Origin: a virus
Lineage: Duplodnaviria > Caudoviricetes
Reading direction: 5' to 3' (one strand)
IMG/VR virus record: IMGVR_UViG_2681813556_000004
Location: 19,783 to 83,782 of that record
DNA: 64,000 nt
The notes beneath the pieces are model-generated. The model saw only the letters and a program-made list of their open reading frames with translations, was not told the DNA's origin and did no database searches. Of the stretch, positions 14,313 through 28,964 are shown one piece after another (the first letter of the stretch is position 1; every line of letters begins with the position of its first letter). Made by a program: the position numbers and the translations under genes.

Positions 14313-17300
14313 CTAGTTGAAGATTGCCGGTGCCCTTTCGCTCCTGATCCGGTCGTTCAGCTTCGGGTTCAGCGAGACGCCGAACTCGTTGCGCTCGCTG
14401 GCCCGGATGCGCCCCAGCATCGACTGCCGCAGGGTGTCCGATGTGATCGGATATTCGGGGTAGCGCATGTTGAAGTCGCGGATTGCGTCGATCACGCCTT
14501 CCGGGATCGGCTGGCCCGACCGAAGGGCATCGCCTGCCTCACGGTGCAAGGATTTGCGCTCATCGGTGATGCGGCGCTCGACATTCCTCAGCCGGTTGTT
14601 GATCCGATACCGCTCGGCCAGTTGCGCGGGTGTGAAGCCGCTGGCCTGCATGATCGCCTGATACGGGCTGACATCCTCGATCAGCGGATCGCCGTTGCGA
14701 GTGATTGCACCCTCGGTGCTGAACCTGCCAGCCTTCATCAGGTCGCGCACGGCCTTGGGCACTGCCGCCTCGATCCCGCGCCACCAGTCCCCATCTCCGA
14801 TGTAGTCGAGCCCTCGATAGAACCCCAGGGGAATGCCCGCGACCGGCCCAAGCAGTTCGCGCATATGGGCGTCGTAGAGATCCTGCCCCTCCAGATCGCG
14901 GTCATCCCCGCGGAACCACAGGTTTGGCATCCCGACACGCTCCGTCAGATCGGCGCCCAGAACCCGGCCAGGTACGCCGCTCATGGCCATGCCCATGGCA
15001 TAGTTCCAGGCCGCCACGCCGGGGGTGTCGCCCTCCATCAGCAAGGCATCCTGCAACCATTCCTCGGCATCGTCGCCCCCACCGGGGAAGAAGGCGCCAA
15101 GAAGCATCATCAGCAGGCCATAGCCCCATGTGCCGCGAATACCGGCATGGGCCATCATGGATAGGGTGATGCCGATCAACTGCGACCGGGCTTCTGCGCG
15201 TTCCTGCTTGCTGGCCCCGTGCAGTGATTGATGGGTATCGCGGAACAGCCGCCACAGCATGTTGACCACGAAGTTCTTCATGCTGGTCACGATGCGCGCC
15301 AGATCCCCTTGCATTGCGCGGGGACGGCTGCTGGACTGGTAGTCGAAATGCACCTCCCACGTCATGTCGGCTGCGGCATCGATCGCTGCCAGCCCGCTCA
15401 ACCCGTCCGCTTTGGCCAGCCGGTAGCCCGCAAGGAATGTCACCTCCCGGTTCAGGCGTTCGGCATGGTGGAACATCCAGCCGATCTTGCGCATGACGCG
15501 CTCACGCACCGCACTGTATTCCACGCCGGTTTCGGCCACGGCAGCAAGATCATGCGCCTGGGTCTTGTCGATGGTGCCCCGGCGATAGGCCTCGTTCAGC
15601 GCATCGCGTTCGTCTTGTGCCAGTCCTTCGGCATTGGCCGCGCTCCATGTCTCGCGCCAGTTGGCGCCGCGACCCTTGGAAAAGTCGCGCAATGCCCGCG
15701 CCAGTTCCGCTGATACGCCAGAGACGCCCGCCTTCCTGAACCGTGTCGCCATCAACGGGATGCCCACCACGGTCGTTTGCGTCAGGTTGGCGACCGCCGC
15801 CGCCGGTGTTGCGCCAAGATACCAGATGAAGGCGAGGTTGGTCAGGCCAGCCGCCCAGGCACTGGTCAGGGGCTCCATGGTGAAGTCGTGGCGGCGTTGC
15901 ATTTCCCGCACAACTGCCCCCATCCGGTTCGGATTGTCCGATTTGCGCGCCTCAAGCTCGGCCTCGTCCATGTGATCTTCCAGCAGGATGCCGTATTTGA
16001 GACGGGCAAGCTGGTGCGCGCCATGGAACATGTGCTTGCCAAAGGCGCGATAGGCATCGCGGTTATAGCCAGCACGCCCCTTGCGATGGACCTTCGAGGT
16101 GCGGATCGAGCTATCCGGCAAGGTTTCCAACCACCGCTGCCAGACCGCATCCATCACTTCGAAATTGGCCCCGGACTCGGCCAGCACCTTTTCCACATCG
16201 GCAACGAAGGTGGGATCGACCTGTGACCGTAGCGCGCCCTTGTTCGAGACCAGACCATGCTGGACGCGACCGGGATGCAGTGCCTCCTGTTCACGAACGA
16301 ACGCCTGCTGCTGGCTCTCGCGCTCGAAGCGGGAGAAGGACATCACCTCGCCTTGCTCGTTGCGCACGGTGACAAAGTAGTCACCAAAGCGCGCCAAGGG
16401 CACATAAGGCCCCTTCATCCGGTTCTGTTCGAACATCTTGCGCAGGGCCGTCAGGCGTGCCCGCGCCGCAAATCCACCGCGCGCCTTCACCGCATCCAGC
16501 TTTGCCTGTGCCTCTGCCAGCGCATCGGTTTTTTCCTGCCCGGTCAGACCCTCATCCTGAATCCGCCGGGCTTCCTTGTGGAAGGCGCGCTCGGCGCGCT
16601 TCAACCCGATCCGCGTTGCGTTTTGCAGGTTCTCCATCACCGCCTTGTCGAAGTCGTCCGCAATGGCGGTGTATTCGGCCAGCACCTTGCCATACATCGC
16701 CTTGAATGGCTCGGGCAGCGCATCATAGGCCCGCTTCAACTCCATGTGGGCCTCGGCTTTGCGGGCCGCGGCCTCCAGCGTGGCGCGTGCCCATGCCTCG
16801 GCACTGTCCCCGCGCCGGGACAGTTCCTCGCGCGCCCGTTGCAGCCAGACATGATCGGAGGGCAAAGGCTTGGAGGGATCGACCCCGGCCAGCGTGGCGC
16901 GGTGCATGAGGTCCATCATGTCGTCATTCGCCCTCGGGTCTTTGCGCCGCAGATCCAGCCATTCCTGCGCCACGGCATCCGCTCGGCCATGCCAGGCATT
17001 GCGCAAGGCATCCATTTCCTCCTTGGTCCGCAGATAGGCCCGCGCCGACACCAATCGCTTGCCAAGCTCCATGAACAGCGGGCGGCCCGGTACCAGCGAG
17101 AGCAGGTTGTATTCGCCATCGCGCCCCTTGCCGACCATGGCGTCGGTCAGGATCGAGGACACGAAGGCACCGGGTTCCTTCCAGTGGTGACTGCCAATCA
17201 GGCCCTTGGCCTTCGCTCCGCTGCGCATCAGGGCATCGCGCATTTCGCGGTCATCCATCCGCCCGGCACCCGGCCCATCCGGCCCGCGCCCGCCGACTGT

Positions 17301-20300
17301 GCCGCCCGCGATCCGCTCCATCACCAACGCAGGGGACACAAAGCCTTGACCGCGCAGCCCGGACGCAATGGCTTGCAGGAATCCCCGCACCTTGTTGAAG
17401 ATCCGCGCCAAGGGCCCAGCCGCATCGCGTGCAGTCGCCCATTCACGGTACATCTCGGCAACCGCCTCTTCGATCTGCACCGAAGTGACCTTGTCGCCAT
17501 AGGCCCGCTCGACACGCGCCATCAGATCGGCATCGACCCGTGCAGCCCGGACCAGCGCCCGCCATTCCTCGGCGGTGAACAGGCCATAGGGCTGGCCCCA
17601 CAGGTCGGGATCGCGCAAGGCATGGACAATCTCATGCCGCATGACTCCGCGCGCATCCCGCGCCGCCGGGTTCAACTCGATCAAGGCCCCGCGCTGACGG
17701 CCCTGGATCGGTACGCCCGACGCCCCCAGCAGCCCGCGCACGACACGTGGCGTCACCTTGCCAGCCAGACCGGCCGCCGCAACCTCGGCCTCGGCCATCC
17801 GCGCAATGTCGCGCAGGGAATCCACCGGCACGGCGGCGGCGTTGATTTTCGGTGGTGCAAGCTGTAGGTTCAGCGTGTCGGCGCCGATTTGTAATTCTGG
17901 CTCCACGCGGGTCTCCCGCGCGTCCATCTGGCCTTGTGCCGGGGCGCCGATATTGCCGCCCAAGTTCAGGTCATAGAACATCCTGCCGTTGTCCATCTCG
18001 CGGATGACGATATGGATGGGCTCTTGGCGGCCGGCGACAGAAACCTGAGCCTGGAAATAGTGAATCTTGCGGACATGCGCGCGGCCGAAGCGGTCCTCGG
18101 ACTCGCCGGTTTTCTCCGCGCTTGCGACGATCTGTTCCAGCGCAGGCACGGCCCGCAGCAGATAGTCGAGCGGCTTCCCGCCGATCTTGCCCGCAGCGGC
18201 GCGCGTGAACGACACCTCCCAGCCCGTGGAAGTGTTCGTGACCTTCCTGCCTTGCAGGTTGTCGCGATACCACGCACGCGCCTTGCGTTGCAGATCAAGC
18301 ATGTCCTCCCACGGCCCGAGTTCGTCGCCGGTCAGGCGCGCGGCAGGTTCCTGATCATCAAAGCGGGATTCCTTGGCCTCGTCAGGCGCGTTCTCCGCCA
18401 GAAGGGCGCCTTCCAGTGCATCGACCTTTTCTGCCAGTTCGTTCAGCTTGTCCTGGTCTGCAAACCCTTTCAGCTTTGCCAGACCTTCCATCACATCGGC
18501 GCGCTCGCGCTCGCGCCGGGCAATATCGGCCTCGATCCGGCGCGGCGTGGCCTCGATCTTGGACAATGCCCCTTCGACCTTCCGGGCCATGCCAACCGGA
18601 TCCTCGGACCAGCCAACCATGACCTCGTTGTCGCGTGGCAGGGCGATATAGTAGGTCACGGCATTCATCGCGTGCGACACTTCGATGTGCAGCGGAAAGC
18701 CGGAAACGGTTCCGACCTTATCCTGATGTCTGAAACCCGTCCCGGCCAAGGCGTCCTCTGCGGCGCTGATCAGATCGGCGCCGAACTCCTTGCGCTCGGT
18801 ATAGGTCTTGCCGCCCATGCGCGCCTCGAAGGCATCGCCTGACAGGTCTTGTACCTTGGCGGCTTGCGGCTGCCAGAAGGTCAACTCCTCACGGTCCATT
18901 GCAATGGCGCGGCCCAGTCCGCGCGCCTTCGCCTCCATCTGCTGGCGTTCGCGCACCGCTGCCCCGGCCCGGCGCTGCAACTTGTCGCGCTCCGCCCGCA
19001 ACTCGGTCAGTTCCAGCACCCGAGGATCGGCGGTGGACATGGCTTTGGCTTGCTCATACTGGCTGGCCTCGCCAAGATCCTCCATGTCGCGCACATTGGG
19101 ATCGCCACGGAAGAACCCTTCGATGAACCCGGCCTTGCGCGCCATCATTTGCCACATGGTCGCGTCGTAGGTACCCTTGGCCGAGTAATCGAGGATTTCG
19201 ATTTCCCGGTTCATGTTGCCCTGCCGGATGCCGCGACCATTTCTCTGCTCGTCGTCGGCAGGGAACCACAACGGATCAAGGTTGTGGATCGCCGTGATGC
19301 GCCGTTGTGCATTGACGCCCGTGAACAGGGTCTTGGAACCGATCAGGATCCGTTTCTTGCCCTCGTTCATGTCATTGAACGCCCGCTGCTTGCGCGCATC
19401 GGATGTCAGATTCTCGGCCAGGATGATTTCGTCGGCTGGCACGCCCATGGCCACCAGTTGCGCCTTGATGAAGCGGTGAACCGAGAAGGACGGGTTGTGT
19501 TTCGACGGGTTCACGCCAAGGGTCGAGAACACCATTTGCGTGGTCGGGCCACGCATCAACGGTTCGTCGGTGTAGCCACCTTCCTTCTTCACCCCGTAAA
19601 GTGGGGCGTCGGCGCCTTCTTTCCAGCGGCGGTAGATGTTGTTGATCATCCGCTCCAGCTTGGAGTTGTTCTCGCCGGCGCTGGGGTCGACAAGGCGCAT
19701 GTCGATGGCTGCAAGGCGACCATCGTTGATGACCGACAACAGGATGTCGTCACCCTTCTTCACCGGCCCCTTCCGATTTTCGATCATGCGCATCCGCGCG
19801 CCCAACTGCTGCTGGTACGCCTTCAGCTCGGGCGAAGCCTCCACCACGATCAGGTTGCGCTTGCCATCTTTCAGCGCAGGCCGGGTCACGTACTGTTCAA
19901 GGTCTTTCGACGACACCACATCCATGACCTGCCGCACCATGAGCGACAGTTCCGGGGTGTTCACGAACTTGGCGAAGCGCGTGACCAGCTTGTACCCCCC
20001 ATCGGGGGCTTGCTCCAAGGCGTTCTCCGTGGTGCCGAAGGTGGCTGCCCAGGAATCGAAGGCCGAGATGTTGCGATCATCCAGCGCCTGCGGCTGCAAG
20101 TACCGGCTGATCGAATAGAGTTCCGCCATCGTGTTGGTAATGGGCGTGCCGGATGCCAGTACCAGACTGCGCCCCGGATTGCGTTGTGCAAGCGAGCGGG
20201 TCTTGATGAACAGGTCCATCGACTGTTGCGAGCCCTGCGGATCGACCCCCTTGATGCTGCCAAGGCTGGTGGCGAAGGATAGTTTGCGGAACAGGTGCGC

Positions 20301-23300
20301 CTCGTCCACGAACAACATGTCGGCGCCGGTCTCATCGAAATCGAACACGGCGTCCTTGCCCTTGTCCGAAGTTTGCCGTGCGATCCGCTGTTCAGCCGCC
20401 TCAAGAAGGGCCTCGATCTTCTTGCGGGTCTTGGTCTCCCCGCTGGTGATGCCCTTTACATCAACTCCCAGCGTGGCCGCCATGCTGTGGAGGGCGCCAA
20501 GAACGGAACGTTCCATCCCGGCATCCTCGCCAAACTGGCCGCCGCTCAGCCCTTCCAGAACATCGCGCACATCCTGCAACATGCCTTCGACGGCAGCTTT
20601 CTTGGATGCCTCCGATGCCGGGATCAACTGGAACGCAGAATGGGTGATGATGACCGCATCGTAGTCACCAAGCGCGGCATCCGCGACGAACTGCTTGCGG
20701 CGCGAGGTATGAAACCGCTTCTCGTCCGCGACCAGAACCTTCGCCAATGGGTATTGCTGATAGAACTCGGTGGCGAACTGGATCAGCATGTGGTTCGGCA
20801 CAGTGTACCAAGGCTTCCGTGCCAGCCCGAGGCGCTTGGCCTCCATGCCAGCGCCGATCATGGCGGAGGTTTTCCCGGCCCCTACGGTATGCGCCATGTA
20901 GGTATCGCCAGATTGCAGGATCCGGGCGATCACTGCCGTCTGGTGCGGGCGCCAACTCCAATCGGAATGGATGCCCGGCGTGGTCAGGTATTCGCCATCG
21001 TATTTCGGCGCCACTTCCGCATTGAAGGTCCGGTTGTAGAGGGTTTCCATCTCCGCCGTTCTGGCGGGATCAGACCAGAACCAGTCGCGGAATCGGGTCT
21101 GCAATTCATTGGCCTTGTCGGTTGCTGCCTGGGTGGCTTCTTCATCGACCCAGGAGTCTGTGCTTCCATCCTGATTGCGGCGAGTTCGGCGCACCTCGAC
21201 CTTCTTGTTCGCCATGACCAGCCCCATCAACTCGCCAAAGGGGCGATCCTCGGTGCCGAACTCCGAGGTGGCCTTCGCGCCGGTGGTGGTGCCGTTCACC
21301 AGCCAGATGCCAAGACGCGGTTTGAATTCGACCTGCAACTCCAGGCCAAGAGCCTCGGCAAAGTCCGGATAGATCGAGGTAGGAAACCAATGGGCGCCAA
21401 GCGGGACGGAAATGTCCTGCGCCGCGACGGGCGCGGGCTGCACTGCGCGCAAGGCATCGACGTTCGGCTGATACTCTGGGTTCGCCCGCGCCTCGCGCTC
21501 GGCTTCTTCCAGTTTCACCACCACGTTGCCAGACAGGTATCTCGCGCGGGTTTCCCACTCCCTTGTGCGCGGGTTCTGGAAGATCTTGCCTTCCAGTTCG
21601 CTGATCACCCGTTCCGATGTGCTGTTGGACAGCGCAGCAATCCTGCCGGGATCGACGCGCCCGGTTTCGCCCAGCAGGTGCAGAAGCGCATCCTCCGGGC
21701 TATTGATCTGGGGCCGCGACGAAACCCTCACAGCATTCTCGGTGAACACGCGGGTTTTCTGCGCGGTATCCGTTTTCTCGTCGTACTTCTCGATGGCCAG
21801 AAGGCGATAGGACTCGGGGTCATCCATGAACGGGTCGATATTCGGCCGCGTCACGATGATCTTGTCGTCCATGGCTTCTGGCGCGAATGTGCCCTCACGA
21901 TAGCCGGGCGCCTGTCGTGCTTCCTGCCGTGCCCGCGCGATTTCCGCCATGGACGCGCCCGCCTCGATCATTGGACCGGCATCGAAGCTGCCAATATCGA
22001 AGGGTTCACCAGCGGCGCGGGCATCGTTCTCGGCCTGTTGCCGCGCGCTCTCCTGCTCCACGATGCTAGGTCGTTGCGTGCGCCTATGCTGCAAGCCGAT
22101 AGGGCCACGCTCCTTCACATAAGCATCGTAGGAATCATTCAGCGCCTTGCGGGCGGCGCTCGCATCCTTCCCATCCACATCGGCGGCGTACACATCGCGC
22201 AGTGCGTTCTTGATCGGGATCAGGGCTTTCACCGCCTCCATGGCGGCTTTCGGCATCCCCTTGGTGTTTTCGCGGCTGCGCGGCTCGACCTTTCGGCCCG
22301 TATTGCCGTCGAACAGCCACAGGGCGCCATCCTTCAGGTAGAATGAGCCAGGCTTGGTCTCGGCGTGATCGGCGTCCAGCGCGTCCAGTTTCACCGATTC
22401 CGGTGGGGCCGACATGATGTTGCTGGGAAACTGCGACAGGACCGATTTGAGGTCGGCACGCAGATCGGCGTTCGGGCGCGGGCGCACACCAACGCGCGCC
22501 CCGGCGGTGAGTGTGTCATAGAGCCCTTGTTCGCCAAGGATCATATCGGGATTTTCGATGAAATAGCGGTTCACCGCCGCCTGTCCAGTGGTGCCGTCAC
22601 TGCCGGGAAGGTCGATCACCTCGGACTGGCGCCATGCCGGATTGGCCTCGGCCTCACTGTCCACGCGCTTGCGCAGCACGATGATGTCGGTAGTGACTTC
22701 GGTTCCATTTTCCTTGAAGGCTGTATTGGGCAGCCGGATTGCACCGACCAGATCGGCCCTGTCAGCCAGATAGTCGCGTGCCTTGCTGTCCATCTTGTTC
22801 ATGGTCCCTGCGGACGTGATGAACATGAGAACCCCGCCTGGGCGCACGGCATCCAGCGATTTGGCAAAGAAATAGTCGTGGATGAAGAACCCTTGCGGGT
22901 AGTCGGGATCGGCCTTGATCTGTGTTCCGGCAAACGGAGGGTTGCCGATAACCAGATCGTAGAACCCTTGCGGCAGCTTCTCCTTGATGAAGTCGCCGTT
23001 CTTGATGTTGTGCCGGGGGTACAGGGCTGCCGCGATCTGGGCAGTGATATGATCCAGCTCCAACCCGGTGTAGGTGGCGTTCAGGCTTCCGGGCATAGTG
23101 CCAGCAAAGCCGCCGACCCCCATTCCTGGCTCATAGACGCGCCCGCCGGTGAACCCAAGCTGCTGGGCAAGTGTCCACATGCTCCGCAGCGCGGACTCTG
23201 CGGTATAGAAGGCGTATTGAGAGGTGCGCGAAAGGGTTGCCCGCTCCTCGGGCGTTGTCATGGTCTCGATTTCAGCGGCCAGATCGGGAAAACGGATGGT

Positions 23301-26300
23301 GCCATCGCTGCGCGGAAGGGTGCCCGCCAAGGTGCCGGCGCCGCCATATTTGGCGAGGGTCGCGCGTTCCTCAGCCGTCGCCGGACGACCCTCTTGCTGG
23401 ATGGTGCGCAGGGTGCGGATCGCCGCAATGCTCTCTCGTGCGCGGGTCTTTTCCCCGCGCGCCAGTTCAAGCCCGCCGGGCTCGATGACGTGGTTTACTG
23501 GTCCTCGCCCGCCAGTGCCGTTTCCAGGGCCAGAGCCATCGCCACTTCTCTGACCATCACGTCGCGGGCCGGATCGTTCTCCGGTACGTTCTGCAACGCG
23601 ATTTCCTGGTCTGCCTGCTGTACGATCATCCGAACGTAGGCTTCCAGCTTGTCCGGTCCCCGCTTGGAGATCTCCCGCGCCTTCTTGGGGGCTCGGTCGA
23701 TCATCGCTTGCATTATTGCGGTTATCATCGCGGCGGTTCTCCGGTTCGGCATCGACGCCAACATTACGGGATTCCGGCTCAGAATGCACCTTGCTTTGCG
23801 ATGCTTCTGCCTCGGCCATCGCGCGGCGCACCTCGTCCAGGACGGCCTTGGCATCGTCCATGTCCGACACGTCTTGCCCGTCGAGGTCCATGGTATCGCG
23901 GACATGATTGTAAGCGGCGCGCATCGGAGCCTGGGCTTCGCGCATGGTCAGGCCGGTGCTTTCCGCAAAATCACGCAGCATCTGTCCGAACCGCTTGGTT
24001 CCGGCCTCGATGTAGAGCCCGACCAGTTCCGCCCCGAGGGTGATGTATTCCGGGTCAAGCCCGCTGCTGGTCTGATTGCGCGCTTTGGCTGCAAGGCGTG
24101 CTTTCAGTTCGTCGGCACGCTTCTGCTTGTCCTCCGACAGGGCAGAGAGGATGCCGCTTGCAGGCTTGCGCCTCTGTGCCCCCGCCGATTCCGGCCCGAA
24201 GATCGCTGTGCGCAACGTTTCCATCTGCTCGCCGGTAAGGCGATCAGCCACCTCGCCGGAGGTCAGTCCTGTTGAGACGGTCGTGTCCAGCCCGGCATTT
24301 TTCAGGGCTTCGCGCCGCTGGTCGCGGTTGTTGGTCCACCACCAATCAAAGCGGCGCGGGCCGGTGGGCTGCGGGCTGATTGGGACAGGTGCATCGCTGG
24401 CCTTGCTGCCCACAGGCGTTTCCCTGCGCGCTGCTTGTTCAGGCTTGCGGGCATCAGCAATCACGGACTCGATCTTGGCCTCGTCCACATTGTGGGTGCC
24501 AGCGAAGATCTGGCGGCCTTTCGGGTCCGTGATCGTGGTGCGATTGACCTGGCGCTTCACCACATAGCCATCATCGGTCACGCGGGCCTGATCGGTTGTC
24601 GGCTCCCCGAATGCGTCTCTGGTTCGTTCGTAGCCAGACAGCAGATCGCCAAGACCGACCGCAGGTTTCTGTCCTGCAATCTGATAGGATGGTGCTTCAA
24701 TGGTTCCGGTGTTTTCCAGCGTCCCGGCGCGGTACAGTCGCCCGAAGGCATCGGTCAGCGCGCGCTTACCGTCATCCGACAATCCATCCCACGCCATGCC
24801 TTGCCGATACTCGCGTTCCGCCTTTGGCCCGGCTTCCTTCAGGATCGCATCCCGCATCGCCTTGTCGGCATTGTCCCACCATGGGGCGCGGGTCGGGGTC
24901 GGCGCGGCTTGCAGGTCGATACCGGCAACCTTGGCGCCAGCCTGACGCACATCAGCATCGTCCTGCGGCGTGATGATTTCGCCATCCAGCGGCTTGGCCT
25001 CGGGGCGGCGCACCTCATATGCCCGTTCGCCATTCGGAAGGTCGACAAGGCGAACATCATAGCCCTTGCGCTTGAGCCCATCATAGAACGCCCGGCCATC
25101 TTCGGTCAGTTCGTAGCCAGAGAGGAACCGCCAGCCGCGCTCTGCGGCATATTCGATGGCCTTGTCATGCAGTGCGGTCGAGACACCCTGACGCTGCATG
25201 TCCTCGCGAACCTCGGTCACGTCAGCTTGCAATGTCTTGGAAGCTGCGTCGGGGAAGGCAATCATGGCAGCATCACCGAGGCGGAACGCCACGGAGTGCT
25301 CCCCTTCGTTCTCGACCTTCACATCAGCGGCTCCTGGACGGCGCGGCTGGGATGGCCCGGTATCGACAATGCGCGTCTTGCCGGTCTGCAAGCTGTTGAG
25401 GATCAGGACGCCGGGCGTGCCCTCTTTCGGCGCAGGCTTCGGCATGACTGCATCGCGCACCTTGTCAGCGTGCTTGCGGGAAAAGATGAAGCCGCCTTCC
25501 TTGTCGTCCCATTTCAGGCTGACACCGGAAACAGCCGGCGGCTGATCCTTCGGAACCCCGCGCAGGACTGCGGCCTTTTCGCGGATGTTTTCGATGACAG
25601 GGGAGATGGATTCGGACGAAGCCGGGGGAGGGGAAATTTTCCCGCCTGCCTTTGCCTTTCCGCTCACCGGCGTGTCGGTCTCGCCAGAATCCAGCCATGC
25701 CTTGAACTCGGGCAGCGCCATCTTGCGGATGCCGCCGATGCGTGCGGCCCCGCGCCCGTCGCTGAACCCGGCCTGATAAGTGGCCTTGGCATCTGCCGGG
25801 GTGTCGAAGCCCAGCATGACTTTATGTTCATCGAACGTGCCGCTGTCCGGGTCGATCTGATCCACCACCCAGACGGACTCGCTGGCAGTGTTCGGCCCCA
25901 TGTAAAAATCCACATGGTCGCCATCGGCGCCTGTCGTGCGCAGGATGCGGCCATACTCGGCCGGCATCGTCACCTTCCATTCGGTGCCGTCGGGCGAGGT
26001 GCCCTTGCGCTCGCTGCCCTTGGCGTTTTCAATGGAAAGGCGCATCCCCTGCCAGTCGATCTTCGCCGTCTTGTAGTTCTCGGCCTCCTTCTGGGCCGGG
26101 GTCGGGTCAGGGTTGGTCTCGGCGGCTGCGGCCTCGAACTGTTCACGGGTGGGCACCGGCTTTTGAGGCTCATTCGTTGGCGGCAATGCCGTTTGAGGAT
26201 CACCTTGGGCCGGTTTGCTGTCAGCAACGGTAGTAGGCTTGCGATTCAGGCTTTCCAGATGCTCGCGCGCCGGCACAGCCTCATATTTCGCGGTGTTCAG

Positions 26301-28964
26301 GGCATCGACCTTTTTGCGGTCGAATGTCTCCATGACGGTTTCGCCGGTCTCCCGGTTGCGAATGACCCAGCTTGCGCCCGGCCCGGCCTGCTCATCGGTC
26401 AAGGATTGCTTGACGGTTGCAGGCTTGGGCAAAGGCGCCACCCGGTCCAGTTCCTGCAAGGCACCGCGCATCCGTGCGGCGATGGTGTCGCGGTCCATGC
26501 CATCGGTGTCGATTGTATAGTCCAGATCGCTGCGACCATTGGGGGTCGCCCGGATCACAATCTTGTTCGGGCGGATCAGAACATCGCGCCCCTCAAGCGT
26601 TGTGTCGTCGCTGCTGCGGCCAGAGGCCACGCCCAGAACGCGCCCCCATTCCCGGCGCCGCCGCTCTTTTGCCGCCATGTCGGCTTCCGTGACCGACTTG
26701 CCGCCAAGCATATCGGGCTGGACACGCTGCTCCGGTGGCGTGCGGATCGGCTCGACAGTCGGGCGCGGGCGGGTCGGCGCGGCCTCTGGCTCGGTGCCGG
26801 GATCGGTGATCTCCCCGGTGTCCTGGTCAAACTGCGGGGCCGTCTCCGCGATTTTGCCCAAGGCGTCGTATTTGCGCTTCATCGGCCCAGTCCAGCCGCC
26901 TTCGCGCGCACGATCTTCCATCTGGCGCATCTGCCTGATCGCTTCATCAGGCGTGACAGGCTGCTTTGGCTTCTTTTCCTTGGGCGGCTTGACCTTGCCC
27001 AATGCCTGTTGGGACAGTGCCTCGGTTTCCGGCGCGGCGGGCAGGGTTTCCTGCGTTGGCGACGGCATGGGCGTGGATTGCGCCGGTGCGGGCTTGGCTT
27101 CCGATTCAGCGGCTGGTTGTTGCGCGGTCGGCTGTTCCTGATCCTTCGGCTTGCTCTTGGTGGCCTGTTCCGCGGCCTTGTCCATGTCAGCCGCCTGACG
27201 GCGCGCAGTATCGAATGCCACCGGGTCGAGGTCGATTTCGACGCCATCAACGCGGATCACTACATTACCGTCCGGTGTTTCGCGCTGGAATACCACATCG
27301 CGGACGAGCCCGGCCTCGTCGTCATAGACACGAACGGCCCCGCCGGGCTTCTGGTCAGGGAACATCTGTGGTGCCGGAACCGGCTCCGGTTGGGGCGTCA
27401 GATCAGGTGCGAGGCGCGCCGCAGCCTCGATGGGTCCGGCAGGAGGGATTTCGTCGACCGCCGCGCCCACACCGGAGGGAGAACTCACCGGAGGGGAATC
27501 GGGCGCGGCGGTCTGCCCCCCGGCGCTGCCATCGCCGGGGTATGCGGATTGCGGGCGGAAACCTGCTGGCTGGGATGCTGGTGGGGTTCCATCAGGGGCG
27601 GAAGCGCCATCTGCGAAGACCGTTCCTCCATCAACCGGCGATGGAAGCTCCAACATCGGTGCCGGAAGGGCCAGCATCGGTGTGGGGGCTTCCGGCTCCG
27701 GCTGAGGCTCCTGCTGCGGACGGCGGGCGCCAAGCGCGCCCATGGGTCCACCGGCCAAAGCACCCGCAGCGGCAGCCTCGATCGCGCCTTCGGTCGGGTT
27801 CAAGCTGGTCCCGGCACCTCGGTTGATCCCGATCCGGGCGCCAGTGCTTTCCAGACCTTCTTGCAAGCCTTCCTCGGTCGCGCCAACGGCAACACCTCGG
27901 GCGACGTTCCCGGCAAGACTCTTTCCGGCAAGGCTTTGCGGCAGACCCTTGGCCACAAGCCCGCCGGTAATGGCGCCACCGGCGCCGCCGATCATAGCCT
28001 GAATGTCACCTGCGGCGTCCATGGCGCGGCGCCGGGTCTCTTGATAGGCCGCATTCGGGTCCATGCCCTGCGCGGTCAATTCGCGGAACACATCAGACTG
28101 CCGGGCTAGTTCCGGCGTGCCGTCCTCGCCCTTGGCCTTCCACAGATCGTCAATGACCTGCGCGGCGGTTTCACGGCCTTCTCCGCCCGCCATCGCCCCG
28201 CCGACACTGGCTGCGGCAAGGCTGCTGCCACGAGTAGCAATGGCCGTGGCGACGACAGGGGCAAGGCTTCCAAGCCCCTCTGCGCTGACCTGTGCCAGAC
28301 CGCGCCAGGAGAAGTCCTCCGGCGCCTTCCATGTCGATGGATCAAGCGGGTCACCTGTCGGCAAGGTCTTTTCCGAGGCTGCCCGCGCCTCTGGCGAAAC
28401 CGCCGACAGGATGCCCTCGCCAGCACCCTTCACGGCTTTGCTCGCGGGGTCGGTGAGGCGGGTTGCGACAGCCCCCAAAGGCTCCTGTCGGCCAGTCGCG
28501 GCTTGAATGATCCGCTGCGCAGGATCGGAATTCAGGGCACGGTCGGCCAGGTTTCCGGCGTAGTCGATGGCCCCGCCAACGCCGCGCACTGCGGCACCAA
28601 GCGCCCCGGCGCCAAGGTCTTTGACCAGCGATGGGCCATCTTTGGCGGTCGCGGCCTTTGGCTGTGGATCAAGCTCGTCCGCGATGCGATAGGCCACATC
28701 CAATAGATCGTCGCCGCCCCGCTCACGAAGCACGTCCTCGATCCCGCGCCCGGCTTTCACCTGTGCCGCCATCTCGGCAGCGAGGGCTTCTGCGCGCGCC
28801 TCGCTGCGATCCTTGTCAGTGGACAACACAGCCAGAATGGCGTTGGCAGGGATCCGATGCTTCGCAGCGATCCGGTTCAGCGATACTTTCGGATCTGCAT
28901 CAGCACTCTGGCGCTTGGCGCCCAGTGGTTGCACCAAGTCGCCAGCAAAGATGTTTCCTGCCAT
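14313..28964 (-). CDS. Giant polyvalent DarB-like ejection protein (PPase-like, GNAT, N6-adenine MTase, SF2 helicase, LPD3-like, zincin, PLxRFG)
   Basis: 4883 aa. ENAKGSERKG...YG...GADGDHVD...FDEHKVMLGF (~25770-26075); VREDMQRQGVST (~25060-25320); YEPGMGVG/NPPF (~22670-23450); AHTVGAGKT/DEAH (~19050-20960); HEIVH (17622-17636); PLARFG (~16390). Confidence 0.92.
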   Translation of the reverse strand: MAGNIFAGDLVQPLGAKRQSADADPKVSLNRIAAKHRIPANAILAVLSTDKDRSEARAEALAAEMAAQVKAGRGIEDVLRERGGDDLLDVAYRIADELDPQPKAATAKDGPSLVKDLGAGALGAAVRGVGGAIDYAGNLADRALNSDPAQRIIQAATGRQEPLGAVATRLTDPASKAVKGAGEGILSAVSPEARAASEKTLPTGDPLDPSTWKAPEDFSWRGLAQVSAEGLGSLAPVVATAIATRGSSLAAASVGGAMAGGEGRETAAQVIDDLWKAKGEDGTPELARQSDVFRELTAQGMDPNAAYQETRRRAMDAAGDIQAMIGGAGGAITGGLVAKGLPQSLAGKSLAGNVARGVAVGATEEGLQEGLESTGARIGINRGAGTSLNPTEGAIEAAAAGALAGGPMGALGARRPQQEPQPEPEAPTPMLALPAPMLELPSPVDGGTVFADGASAPDGTPPASQPAGFRPQSAYPGDGSAGGQTAAPDSPPVSSPSGVGAAVDEIPPAGPIEAAARLAPDLTPQPEPVPAPQMFPDQKPGGAVRVYDDEAGLVRDVVFQRETPDGNVVIRVDGVEIDLDPVAFDTARRQAADMDKAAEQATKSKPKDQEQPTAQQPAAESEAKPAPAQSTPMPSPTQETLPAAPETEALSQQALGKVKPPKEKKPKQPVTPDEAIRQMRQMEDRAREGGWTGPMKRKYDALGKIAETAPQFDQDTGEITDPGTEPEAAPTRPRPTVEPIRTPPEQRVQPDMLGGKSVTEADMAAKERRRREWGRVLGVASGRSSDDTTLEGRDVLIRPNKIVIRATPNGRSDLDYTIDTDGMDRDTIAARMRGALQELDRVAPLPKPATVKQSLTDEQAGPGASWVIRNRETGETVMETFDRKKVDALNTAKYEAVPAREHLESLNRKPTTVADSKPAQGDPQTALPPTNEPQKPVPTREQFEAAAAETNPDPTPAQKEAENYKTAKIDWQGMRLSIENAKGSERKGTSPDGTEWKVTMPAEYGRILRTTGADGDHVDFYMGPNTASESVWVVDQIDPDSGTFDEHKVMLGFDTPADAKATYQAGFSDGRGAARIGGIRKMALPEFKAWLDSGETDTPVSGKAKAGGKISPPPASSESISPVIENIREKAAVLRGVPKDQPPAVSGVSLKWDDKEGGFIFSRKHADKVRDAVMPKPAPKEGTPGVLILNSLQTGKTRIVDTGPSQPRRPGAADVKVENEGEHSVAFRLGDAAMIAFPDAASKTLQADVTEVREDMQRQGVSTALHDKAIEYAAERGWRFLSGYELTEDGRAFYDGLKRKGYDVRLVDLPNGERAYEVRRPEAKPLDGEIITPQDDADVRQAGAKVAGIDLQAAPTPTRAPWWDNADKAMRDAILKEAGPKAEREYRQGMAWDGLSDDGKRALTDAFGRLYRAGTLENTGTIEAPSYQIAGQKPAVGLGDLLSGYERTRDAFGEPTTDQARVTDDGYVVKRQVNRTTITDPKGRQIFAGTHNVDEAKIESVIADARKPEQAARRETPVGSKASDAPVPISPQPTGPRRFDWWWTNNRDQRREALKNAGLDTTVSTGLTSGEVADRLTGEQMETLRTAIFGPESAGAQRRKPASGILSALSEDKQKRADELKARLAAKARNQTSSGLDPEYITLGAELVGLYIEAGTKRFGQMLRDFAESTGLTMREAQAPMRAAYNHVRDTMDLDGQDVSDMDDAKAVLDEVRRAMAEAEASQSKVHSEPESRNVGVDAEPENRRDDNRNNASDDRPSPQEGAGDLQAGTGQAGSLRSDDRTAGRPGNRVAERTGERSGPRRDGQRSGDGSGPGNGTGGRGPVNHVIEPGGLELARGEKTRARESIAAIRTLRTIQQEGRPATAEERATLAKYGGAGTLAGTLPRSDGTIRFPDLAAEIETMTTPEERATLSRTSQYAFYTAESALRSMWTLAQQLGFTGGRVYEPGMGVGGFAGTMPGSLNATYTGLELDHITAQIAAALYPRHNIKNGDFIKEKLPQGFYDLVIGNPPFAGTQIKADPDYPQGFFIHDYFFAKSLDAVRPGGVLMFITSAGTMNKMDSKARDYLADRADLVGAIRLPNTAFKENGTEVTTDIIVLRKRVDSEAEANPAWRQSEVIDLPGSDGTTGQAAVNRYFIENPDMILGEQGLYDTLTAGARVGVRPRPNADLRADLKSVLSQFPSNIMSAPPESVKLDALDADHAETKPGSFYLKDGALWLFDGNTGRKVEPRSRENTKGMPKAAMEAVKALIPIKNALRDVYAADVDGKDASAARKALNDSYDAYVKERGPIGLQHRRTQRPSIVEQESARQQAENDARAAGEPFDIGSFDAGPMIEAGASMAEIARARQEARQAPGYREGTFAPEAMDDKIIVTRPNIDPFMDDPESYRLLAIEKYDEKTDTAQKTRVFTENAVRVSSRPQINSPEDALLHLLGETGRVDPGRIAALSNSTSERVISELEGKIFQNPRTREWETRARYLSGNVVVKLEEAEREARANPEYQPNVDALRAVQPAPVAAQDISVPLGAHWFPTSIYPDFAEALGLELQVEFKPRLGIWLVNGTTTGAKATSEFGTEDRPFGELMGLVMANKKVEVRRTRRNQDGSTDSWVDEEATQAATDKANELQTRFRDWFWSDPARTAEMETLYNRTFNAEVAPKYDGEYLTTPGIHSDWSWRPHQTAVIARILQSGDTYMAHTVGAGKTSAMIGAGMEAKRLGLARKPWYTVPNHMLIQFATEFYQQYPLAKVLVADEKRFHTSRRKQFVADAALGDYDAVIITHSAFQLIPASEASKKAAVEGMLQDVRDVLEGLSGGQFGEDAGMERSVLGALHSMAATLGVDVKGITSGETKTRKKIEALLEAAEQRIARQTSDKGKDAVFDFDETGADMLFVDEAHLFRKLSFATSLGSIKGVDPQGSQQSMDLFIKTRSLAQRNPGRSLVLASGTPITNTMAELYSISRYLQPQALDDRNISAFDSWAATFGTTENALEQAPDGGYKLVTRFAKFVNTPELSLMVRQVMDVVSSKDLEQYVTRPALKDGKRNLIVVEASPELKAYQQQLGARMRMIENRKGPVKKGDDILLSVINDGRLAAIDMRLVDPSAGENNSKLERMINNIYRRWKEGADAPLYGVKKEGGYTDEPLMRGPTTQMVFSTLGVNPSKHNPSFSVHRFIKAQLVAMGVPADEIILAENLTSDARKQRAFNDMNEGKKRILIGSKTLFTGVNAQRRITAIHNLDPLWFPADDEQRNGRGIRQGNMNREIEILDYSAKGTYDATMWQMMARKAGFIEGFFRGDPNVRDMEDLGEASQYEQAKAMSTADPRVLELTELRAERDKLQRRAGAAVRERQQMEAKARGLGRAIAMDREELTFWQPQAAKVQDLSGDAFEARMGGKTYTERKEFGADLISAAEDALAGTGFRHQDKVGTVSGFPLHIEVSHAMNAVTYYIALPRDNEVMVGWSEDPVGMARKVEGALSKIEATPRRIEADIARRERERADVMEGLAKLKGFADQDKLNELAEKVDALEGALLAENAPDEAKESRFDDQEPAARLTGDELGPWEDMLDLQRKARAWYRDNLQGRKVTNTSTGWEVSFTRAAAGKIGGKPLDYLLRAVPALEQIVASAEKTGESEDRFGRAHVRKIHYFQAQVSVAGRQEPIHIVIREMDNGRMFYDLNLGGNIGAPAQGQMDARETRVEPELQIGADTLNLQLAPPKINAAAVPVDSLRDIARMAEAEVAAAGLAGKVTPRVVRGLLGASGVPIQGRQRGALIELNPAARDARGVMRHEIVHALRDPDLWGQPYGLFTAEEWRALVRAARVDADLMARVERAYGDKVTSVQIEEAVAEMYREWATARDAAGPLARIFNKVRGFLQAIASGLRGQGFVSPALVMERIAGGTVGGRGPDGPGAGRMDDREMRDALMRSGAKAKGLIGSHHWKEPGAFVSSILTDAMVGKGRDGEYNLLSLVPGRPLFMELGKRLVSARAYLRTKEEMDALRNAWHGRADAVAQEWLDLRRKDPRANDDMMDLMHRATLAGVDPSKPLPSDHVWLQRAREELSRRGDSAEAWARATLEAAARKAEAHMELKRAYDALPEPFKAMYGKVLAEYTAIADDFDKAVMENLQNATRIGLKRAERAFHKEARRIQDEGLTGQEKTDALAEAQAKLDAVKARGGFAARARLTALRKMFEQNRMKGPYVPLARFGDYFVTVRNEQGEVMSFSRFERESQQQAFVREQEALHPGRVQHGLVSNKGALRSQVDPTFVADVEKVLAESGANFEVMDAVWQRWLETLPDSSIRTSKVHRKGRAGYNRDAYRAFGKHMFHGAHQLARLKYGILLEDHMDEAELEARKSDNPNRMGAVVREMQRRHDFTMEPLTSAWAAGLTNLAFIWYLGATPAAAVANLTQTTVVGIPLMATRFRKAGVSGVSAELARALRDFSKGRGANWRETWSAANAEGLAQDERDALNEAYRRGTIDKTQAHDLAAVAETGVEYSAVRERVMRKIGWMFHHAERLNREVTFLAGYRLAKADGLSGLAAIDAAADMTWEVHFDYQSSSRPRAMQGDLARIVTSMKNFVVNMLWRLFRDTHQSLHGASKQERAEARSQLIGITLSMMAHAGIRGTWGYGLLMMLLGAFFPGGGDDAEEWLQDALLMEGDTPGVAAWNYAMGMAMSGVPGRVLGADLTERVGMPNLWFRGDDRDLEGQDLYDAHMRELLGPVAGIPLGFYRGLDYIGDGDWWRGIEAAVPKAVRDLMKAGRFSTEGAITRNGDPLIEDVSPYQAIMQASGFTPAQLAERYRINNRLRNVERRITDERKSLHREAGDALRSGQPIPEGVIDAIRDFNMRYPEYPITSDTLRQSMLGRIRASERNEFGVSLNPKLNDRIRSERAPAIFN
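23495..23728 (-). CDS. Nested out-of-frame 77-aa helical protein (TnpV-like pattern)
   Basis: GGAG RBS; MITAIMQAMIDRAPKKAREISKRGPDKLEAYVRMIVQQADQEI...; G/C-ending codon bias follows this frame, not the giant frame. Confidence 0.65.
   Translation of the reverse strand: MITAIMQAMIDRAPKKAREISKRGPDKLEAYVRMIVQQADQEIALQNVPENDPARDVMVREVAMALALETALAGEDQ

Follow-up and report, generated by a model that had tools for sequence, protein, structure and literature searches.

The window analysed here is a stretch of 64,000 nt from IMG/VR virus record IMGVR_UViG_2681813556_000004, whose minus strand contains a single open reading frame (ORF) of 14,652 nt (positions 14313-28964, 4883 codons). Pfam domains found in the predicted product are InPase, GNAT (weak), Eco57I-type methyltransferase (MTase), SNF2/helicase, LPD3 and LPD39, and the surrounding genes encode portal, major head, internal virion protein, tail fibres, virion structural proteins and an amidase. 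Because of these domains and of the virion-gene neighbours, we read the product of this giant gene as a predicted polyvalent DarB-like virion or ejection protein of a podovirus-like prophage; several unrelated conflict and enzymatic domains, LPD families included, are united there in one polypeptide within a prophage context, which is the make-up by which polyvalent proteins are recognised. Inside the giant gene, on the same strand and in the +1 frame, lies a second ORF of 77 codons and, judging from the comparison of related sequences, the 234 nt shared by the two frames very probably encode two proteins. The features of the region are the following:

23495 to 23728, minus strand: nested gene, +1 frame relative to the giant, 77 codons plus TAA
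23739 to 23742, minus strand: Shine-Dalgarno-like GGAG, 10 nt 5′ of the nested ATG
23496 to 23729, minus strand: giant-frame linker (codons 1746-1823), rich in G, R and D, reading across the nested gene; open, sequence unconserved
22596 to 23495, minus strand: first 300 codons (the "anchor") of the methylase-helicase module, starting at the nested stop
14313 to 28964, minus strand: putative host polyvalent (DarB-like) gene, 4883-codon ORF, so read from Pfam domains and neighbours

The nested ORF extends from an ATG at 23728-23726 to a TAA at 23497-23495, wholly within 14313-28964, and is present as a single copy in its own genome. With a start and a stop of its own inside a longer ORF in another frame, it is a same-strand embedded overlapping ORF, and its product would have a mass of 8.6 kDa and a pI of 4.8. 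The giant-frame peptide over the same nucleotides (78 aa) is dominated by G18, R12, D9 and S7. GC content at third codon positions (GC3) of the giant frame drops from ∼0.75 to 0.27-0.40 over about 23714-23594 (90-nt windows), while the nested frame shows a GC content of 0.77/0.3/0.78 at positions 1/2/3, a normal coding pattern. A blastn match to the nearest public relative, the distant Roseicitreum plasmid pRA01, sets in at 23494, the base directly after the nested stop, and pRA01 carries a similar small ORF in the +1 frame where its DNA no longer aligns with the window. An earlier note on this DNA had described a nested ORF with a GGAG ribosome-binding site and a stop at the methylase boundary, and had proposed a frame-specific GC3 plot as a check; the coordinates and the pRA01 homology from 23494 bear out the description, and the plot finds the giant frame aberrant and the nested frame coding-like.

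Conservation of the nested ORF and selection on the two frames

Only the first 300 residues of the methylase module served as the query for related loci, which made the sample blind to the small ORF. The anchor-collected set consisted of 8 genome contigs (Paracoccus, Salipiger, Rhodobacterales metagenome-assembled genomes, a Roseobacter and a Dechloromonas) and 4 IMG/VR contigs, and every one of these loci carried a +1 ORF of 72-84 codons. The same arrangement was found in five further IMG/VR and two ENA/Logan loci. Two distant giants (Novosphingobium and a JGI metagenome; anchor identity 36-45%) had a 99-codon +1 ORF at the same place, and host-frame GC3 collapsed there too. Thus, a homologous ORF of 72-109 codons occupied the same frame and place in all ∼27 related modules whose DNA was examined (Rhodobacterales, Sphingomonadales, Dechloromonas and IMG/VR contigs). 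It was intact throughout; stops interrupting the nested frame in close homologues, which the earlier note had named as the result that would speak against a gene, were not seen. The start codon was ATG in 24 of 25 loci and GTG in the remaining one (pRA01), and the nested stop fell between -28 and +11 nt from the first conserved residue of the module in the 10 loci of the window's clade that were measured.

The module itself belongs to a family of at least 1564 giant proteins (E≤1e-20) and is present in 1978 plasmid records of PLSDB. In all giants among the matches listed, the ∼100 residues ahead of the module form a low-complexity linker with 2-15% hydrophobic residues, and an amino-acid "shadow" of the N-terminus of the nested gene could be recognised in at least 79 of the 118 listed giants.

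We compared both frames across the homologues. In global alignments, the median z-score against shuffles was 12.8 for the nested frame and 3.4 for the giant frame, the nested value being higher in 105/105 pairs; in distant pairs the giant-frame z-score fell to 0.3-2 and the nested one was still at least 10. Codon alignments gave a higher amino-acid identity for the nested than for the giant frame in 145/153 and 36/36 pairs. Within the nested frame, variation was greater at third than at second positions in 148/153 and 34/36 pairs, which makes the third position of the host frame the one that varies least, opposite to what an ordinary gene shows. The pair L033 and L034 is an example, with nested differences of 0.16/0.14/0.44 at positions 1/2/3 and an identity of 76% in the nested frame and 49% in the giant frame. 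By z-score, identity and third-position variation, the nested frame is thus protein-like; the giant frame is merely kept open.

The giant frame is nevertheless under constraint to remain open. When the nested protein was held fixed and its codons were redrawn from host-gene usage, a stop-free giant frame resulted in no more than 1-11% of the trials for a given locus, although every locus in fact has it open. T-ending nested codons numbered 71 against the 156 expected from amino-acid content and local codon usage, with fewer observed than expected in 19/19 loci. At third positions preceding a codon that starts with AA, AG or GA, where a T would create a stop in the giant frame, T occurred in 0 of 468 cases, compared with 5.7% before other codons. 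A shuffle of codons within each ORF (median P(open) 0.45) was uninformative alone, given that T-ending codons are scarce in these ORFs from the outset, and was superseded by the two tests on T-ending codons and on would-be stops. Overall, these results support the view that both frames are under selection in every relative examined. The earlier note's claim of true dual coding gains support from the conservation of the nested frame together with a host frame that stays open in each of these relatives.

The small protein and its relatives

AlphaFold predicted a four-helix protein for the window's clade, with a predicted local distance difference test score (pLDDT) of 86.9 and a predicted template modelling score (pTM) of 0.70. 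A sister clade of nested proteins gave a pLDDT of 74.3, also with four helices and in matching order, and the two clades align with an hhalign probability of 90.7% (E 1.2e-6, 62 columns).

The profile search that the earlier note had suggested for the 77-aa product was run on 1.84 billion representative proteins with a hidden Markov model (HMM) built from the window's clade. It returned 13 hits, all of them small proteins of 42-84 aa, and among these 13 none was an in-frame domain of a long protein. Except for P0018 and P0015, all the hits whose contigs were read lie on short contigs in which the giant is cut off, which is why gene callers had called the small ORF there. P0018 (E 3.5e-6) is a genuine free gene of 77 codons located between deoC and an aldehyde dehydrogenase gene, and the frame corresponding to the giant frame is closed in it after 42 codons. 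The same P0018 protein is found on six contigs (among them L013 920-1153, L014 1835-2068 and L015 311-544), the gene's stop codon shares bases with the start of the following gene (ATGA), GC content is 0.44 between flanks of 0.61-0.66, and no methylase lies nearby. Searches of the nested proteins by tblastn found no match in the INPHARED cultured phages and only Roseicitreum pRA01 among the PLSDB plasmids. A weak Pfam DUF416 match (E 0.027) was dismissed as below the cut-off. A wide VIA-align search (best Z 7.1, with scattered sigma-factor domain-2 matches at Z ∼5) stayed within the noise for small helical bundles.

The earlier note had pointed to small TnpV-like genes ahead of methylase-helicase genes in plasmids and conjugative elements. 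TnpV (PF14198) is known from Tn4451/Tn4453 and Firmicute conjugative elements, where its role in excision has merely been postulated from a similarity to lambda Xis (PMC3158075). Both TnpV and the window's ORF would be small helical proteins of mobile elements, but the latter has 77 aa compared with about 115, lacks the N-terminal part of the profile, and resides in a proteobacterial prophage, not in a Firmicute transposon or integrative and conjugative element. No TnpV hit at E≤1 was obtained for the window's ORF, nor for any of 11 members of its clade. In the sister clade, PF14198 was the top family in 27/36 members, in a consistent register, with a best score of 20.2 bits and a best E of 1e-4, all of them below the Pfam gathering cut-off of 27 bits. 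Profiles of the two nested clades showed no similarity to one single Listeria TnpV sequence.

A nested TnpV proper was found in the Listeria plasmid pLmc2689 (L038 968-1312), where a TnpV ORF scoring 29.0 bits lies in the +1 frame before a homologous methylase module, at a position that matches that of the window's ORF; it is identical in 95 Listeria plasmids. The part of the TnpV comparison that stands is therefore carried by the sub-threshold hits of the sister clade, by the hhalign match between the clades and by the nested Listeria gene, while the window's own ORF remains without a Pfam hit. We consider the window's small protein a probable distant relative of TnpV. The Listeria host gene is a polyvalent ArdC/SNF2/methylase gene. 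The matched stretch was annotated as TnpV in two of the 24 listed records (one Listeria and one Heyndrickxia), and the rest name the host gene only, under three product names.

The arrangement is, as far as these genomes tell, widespread but not universal. Modules of the P1-type DarB, Rhizobium and Clostridium plasmids start at the anchor and have no such gene upstream. The window adds to the family a diverged branch from a proteobacterial prophage that is invisible to Pfam. At the same position in a pTet-type plasmid of Campylobacter jejuni (NZ_CP148196.1; L041 333-812), a 159-codon +1 ORF preceded by a strong AGGAG Shine-Dalgarno sequence ends at the module start within an SNF2-related gene. 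It belongs to no Pfam family and looks unrelated; a frame of that length is unusual in DNA of 29% GC, and this may be another nested gene.

Expression of the small protein and rival explanations

A Shine-Dalgarno-like 4-mer (GGAG, GAGG or AGGA) was present at -17..-5 in 21 of 25 loci, compared with 8-11% at background positions or at other ATGs of the same loci. Conservation starts exactly at the nested ATG and the +1 frame upstream is unconserved; in several loci (L009, L003, L028, L029 and L031) that frame contains stops 3-20 codons upstream of the ATG. In the window, no sigma-70-like promoter was found upstream of the nested start. Taken together, these four observations lead us to infer internal initiation: ribosomes would start the small protein independently within the long late-operon mRNA, using the Shine-Dalgarno sequence and ATG of the nested ORF, and would terminate at the module boundary. 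Judged by the comparison of relatives, the +1 frame would yield a small acidic four-helix protein under ordinary purifying selection. The giant frame would use the same nucleotides as a disordered spacer linking the N-terminal domains to the methylase-helicase module, and the sole constraint visible on it, to contain no stop, would be satisfied by avoiding T at nested third positions, wholly so before codons with AA, AG or GA as their first two bases. That the 234 nt yield these two products, a folded +1-frame protein and a disordered giant-frame spacer, is in our judgement a strongly favoured reading.

The nested ORF could instead be a compositional by-product, that is, a G/R/D-rich linker in high-GC DNA leaving the +1 frame open by chance. 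Indeed, when the giant peptide was held fixed and its synonymous codons were redrawn, the nested frame was open in ∼90% of trials, so that openness alone proves nothing, and many long spurious ORFs exist in the other frames of the giant and on the other strand. It is the conservation of the nested frame, and not its openness, that goes beyond chance. Chance does not account for an ATG with a Shine-Dalgarno sequence at the homologous site in 25 loci, nor for protein similarity that outlasts the alignability of both the giant-frame peptide and the DNA; the variability of nested third positions, the confident predicted fold, the stand-alone homologue and the abnormal GC3 of the giant add to this, and the by-product is largely refuted, its probability being minimal. 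Nor are the data better explained by a conserved element of nucleic acid, for example an RNA structure or a junction at which modules of polyvalent genes recombine. Such an element would explain why the unit sits at a module boundary, why two copies of it flank an unrelated segment in a decayed gene of genome G271 and why the fragments at L009 and L020 break near it. Between clades, however, DNA identity is gone and protein similarity is kept, and substitutions cluster at nested third positions, as is typical of a translated frame and not of a structured RNA or a DNA site; we give this explanation hardly any weight.

The remaining alternatives concern how the region is translated. Ribosomes on the giant gene might shift by +1 near 23728 and stop at 23495, so that the product would be an N-terminal fragment ending in a helical tail and there would be no separate small protein. 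Both frames do share one mRNA, and in the window the +1 frame is open for 59 codons upstream of the ATG. Such a path is closed in the five loci with +1 stops before the conserved ATG; in addition, the sequence upstream of the ATG is unconserved and no common slippery motif was seen, so neither a conserved shift site nor a general open path into the shifted frame was found. A conserved ATG and Shine-Dalgarno sequence would also be superfluous for frameshifting, and a free 77-codon homologue exists. A programmed frameshift is thus very improbable. It is likewise quite improbable, if a shade less so, that the region holds three genes (for an N-terminal protein, the small protein and the methylase-helicase) with a linker that is not translated through and open only incidentally. 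Gene callers do split the region in this way on short or fragmentary contigs, but in none of the ∼27 loci is the N-terminal part closed by a stop, and the open linker, a chance of 1-11% per locus, has been attained through a targeted loss of T-ending codons. Moreover, the anchor lacks a start codon both in the window and in L003, and the host frame of L035 and L036 runs on without a stop well upstream of where the gene was called to start.

Several points weigh against dual coding, besides the ease with which the nested frame stays open under a fixed giant peptide. The Shine-Dalgarno spacing in the window, 10 nt, is rather long. Non-independence of the related loci makes the P-values look stronger than they are. 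No curated family in Pfam, PHROGs or NCBIfam matched the window's ORF, and Foldseek gave nothing at E≤0.001 against the PDB and no informative structural match. Finally, no nested ORF precedes the module in an Enterococcus plasmid, in Rhizobium jaguaris, in Clostridium argentinense or in a P1-type E. coli plasmid. The existence of such relatives means that the module does not strictly need the nested gene.

Origin, possible role and comparison with known systems

The nested frame has host-typical codon usage and a folded predicted product, whereas the host frame is compositionally aberrant and disordered, which, by the reasoning commonly applied to overprinted genes, suggests that the nested frame is the older reading and that the linker was overprinted on it. 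The earlier note had gone further and proposed that a two-gene cassette was captured and read through. The codon usage of the nested frame fits this proposal, but no unfused pair of small gene and methylase was found among the loci examined, and no small gene of this kind precedes the modules that begin at the anchor. Two candidate split cassettes (L035 and L036) were rejected: the gene calls are split there, yet the open host frame makes the small ORF nested. The L009, L020 and G271 loci were also rejected as unfused cassettes, being decayed fragments.

The one solid clue to function is linkage, as the small gene sits directly at the N-terminal edge of the module regardless of what precedes it. 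Since the two are always joined in this way, the small protein could act with the methylase-helicase module as a partner, an assembly factor or a regulator, a proposal to which we give a little less than even chances. Otherwise, and speculatively, it would be an independent TnpV-type factor of mobile elements. A broader and still more tentative idea is that the DarB-type module has been accompanied since ancient times, and almost universally, by the TnpV-like nested gene, retained in its overlapping frame all the way from Firmicute conjugative elements to proteobacterial phages, with a product that serves as a hidden subunit or regulator of a widespread anti-restriction machine. If so, polyvalent genes annotated as "single" would, in their thousands, each comprise two genes, and a functional context would emerge for TnpV.

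Two classical overlaps resemble the present one. The Rz and Rz1 spanins of phage lambda are structured partners of similar size; there too, a whole gene lies in the +1 frame of a larger phage gene on the same strand, with one late mRNA and separate starts. The host frame of the window differs in giving only a disordered spacer of a 4883-residue protein, and a partnership of the two products is speculative here. In Bacillus subtilis, comS is a small regulatory gene located out of frame inside the giant multidomain gene srfAB. Its 46 codons lie over an enzymatic domain and its distribution is limited to one narrow lineage, whereas the window's pair is conserved across distant lineages and overlaps a linker. 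To our knowledge, long same-strand overlaps selected in both frames are rare in bacteria and phages and are usually restricted to narrow lineages; the overlap described here belongs to a very large family, at least 1564 giants sharing the module.

The giant has the defining composition of polyvalent proteins and of P1 DarB (LPD3, LPD39, InPase, MTase and helicase), but the P1-type DarB module differs in starting at the anchor without a nested gene. The words TnpV, overlapping, frameshift and linker are absent from the paper that describes polyvalent proteins (Iyer et al. 2017, PMC5512222), and no description of the nested arrangement was found in the literature searched. The nested gene has been missed by gene callers and family libraries alike, being called only on short contig fragments and as a hypothetical protein. 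The region would represent a clean natural case of frame sharing, in which a folded protein sets the codons and the other frame becomes a disordered spacer that avoids stops. It would also offer an experimental handle on the activity of TnpV-type proteins and on the assembly or control of DarB-like injected anti-defence proteins.

Some loci carry the unit in a decayed setting. A truncated copy of the module (L009 3758-4990; 410 codons, several conserved residues changed) lies among sugar-metabolism genes and starts 16 nt upstream of an intact nested ORF. An intact ORF of the nested family without a downstream methylase (L020 544-774) is found beside excisionase-like and transposase-like fragments. 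In genome G271 (L044/L045, contig C11, ∼102988-104250), two tandem copies of linker and nested ORF, 1011 nt apart, sit in a decayed frame of 591 codons beside an AlpA-like gene, and this frame ends exactly at the module boundary. The G271 unit of linker and nested ORF may act as a junction for module shuffling.

Several very long ORFs also run antisense to the giant, on the plus strand of the window between 16257 and 28109, such as 24435-28109 (1224 codons) and 20295-22346 (683 codons). They look like typical shadow ORFs of high-GC coding DNA.

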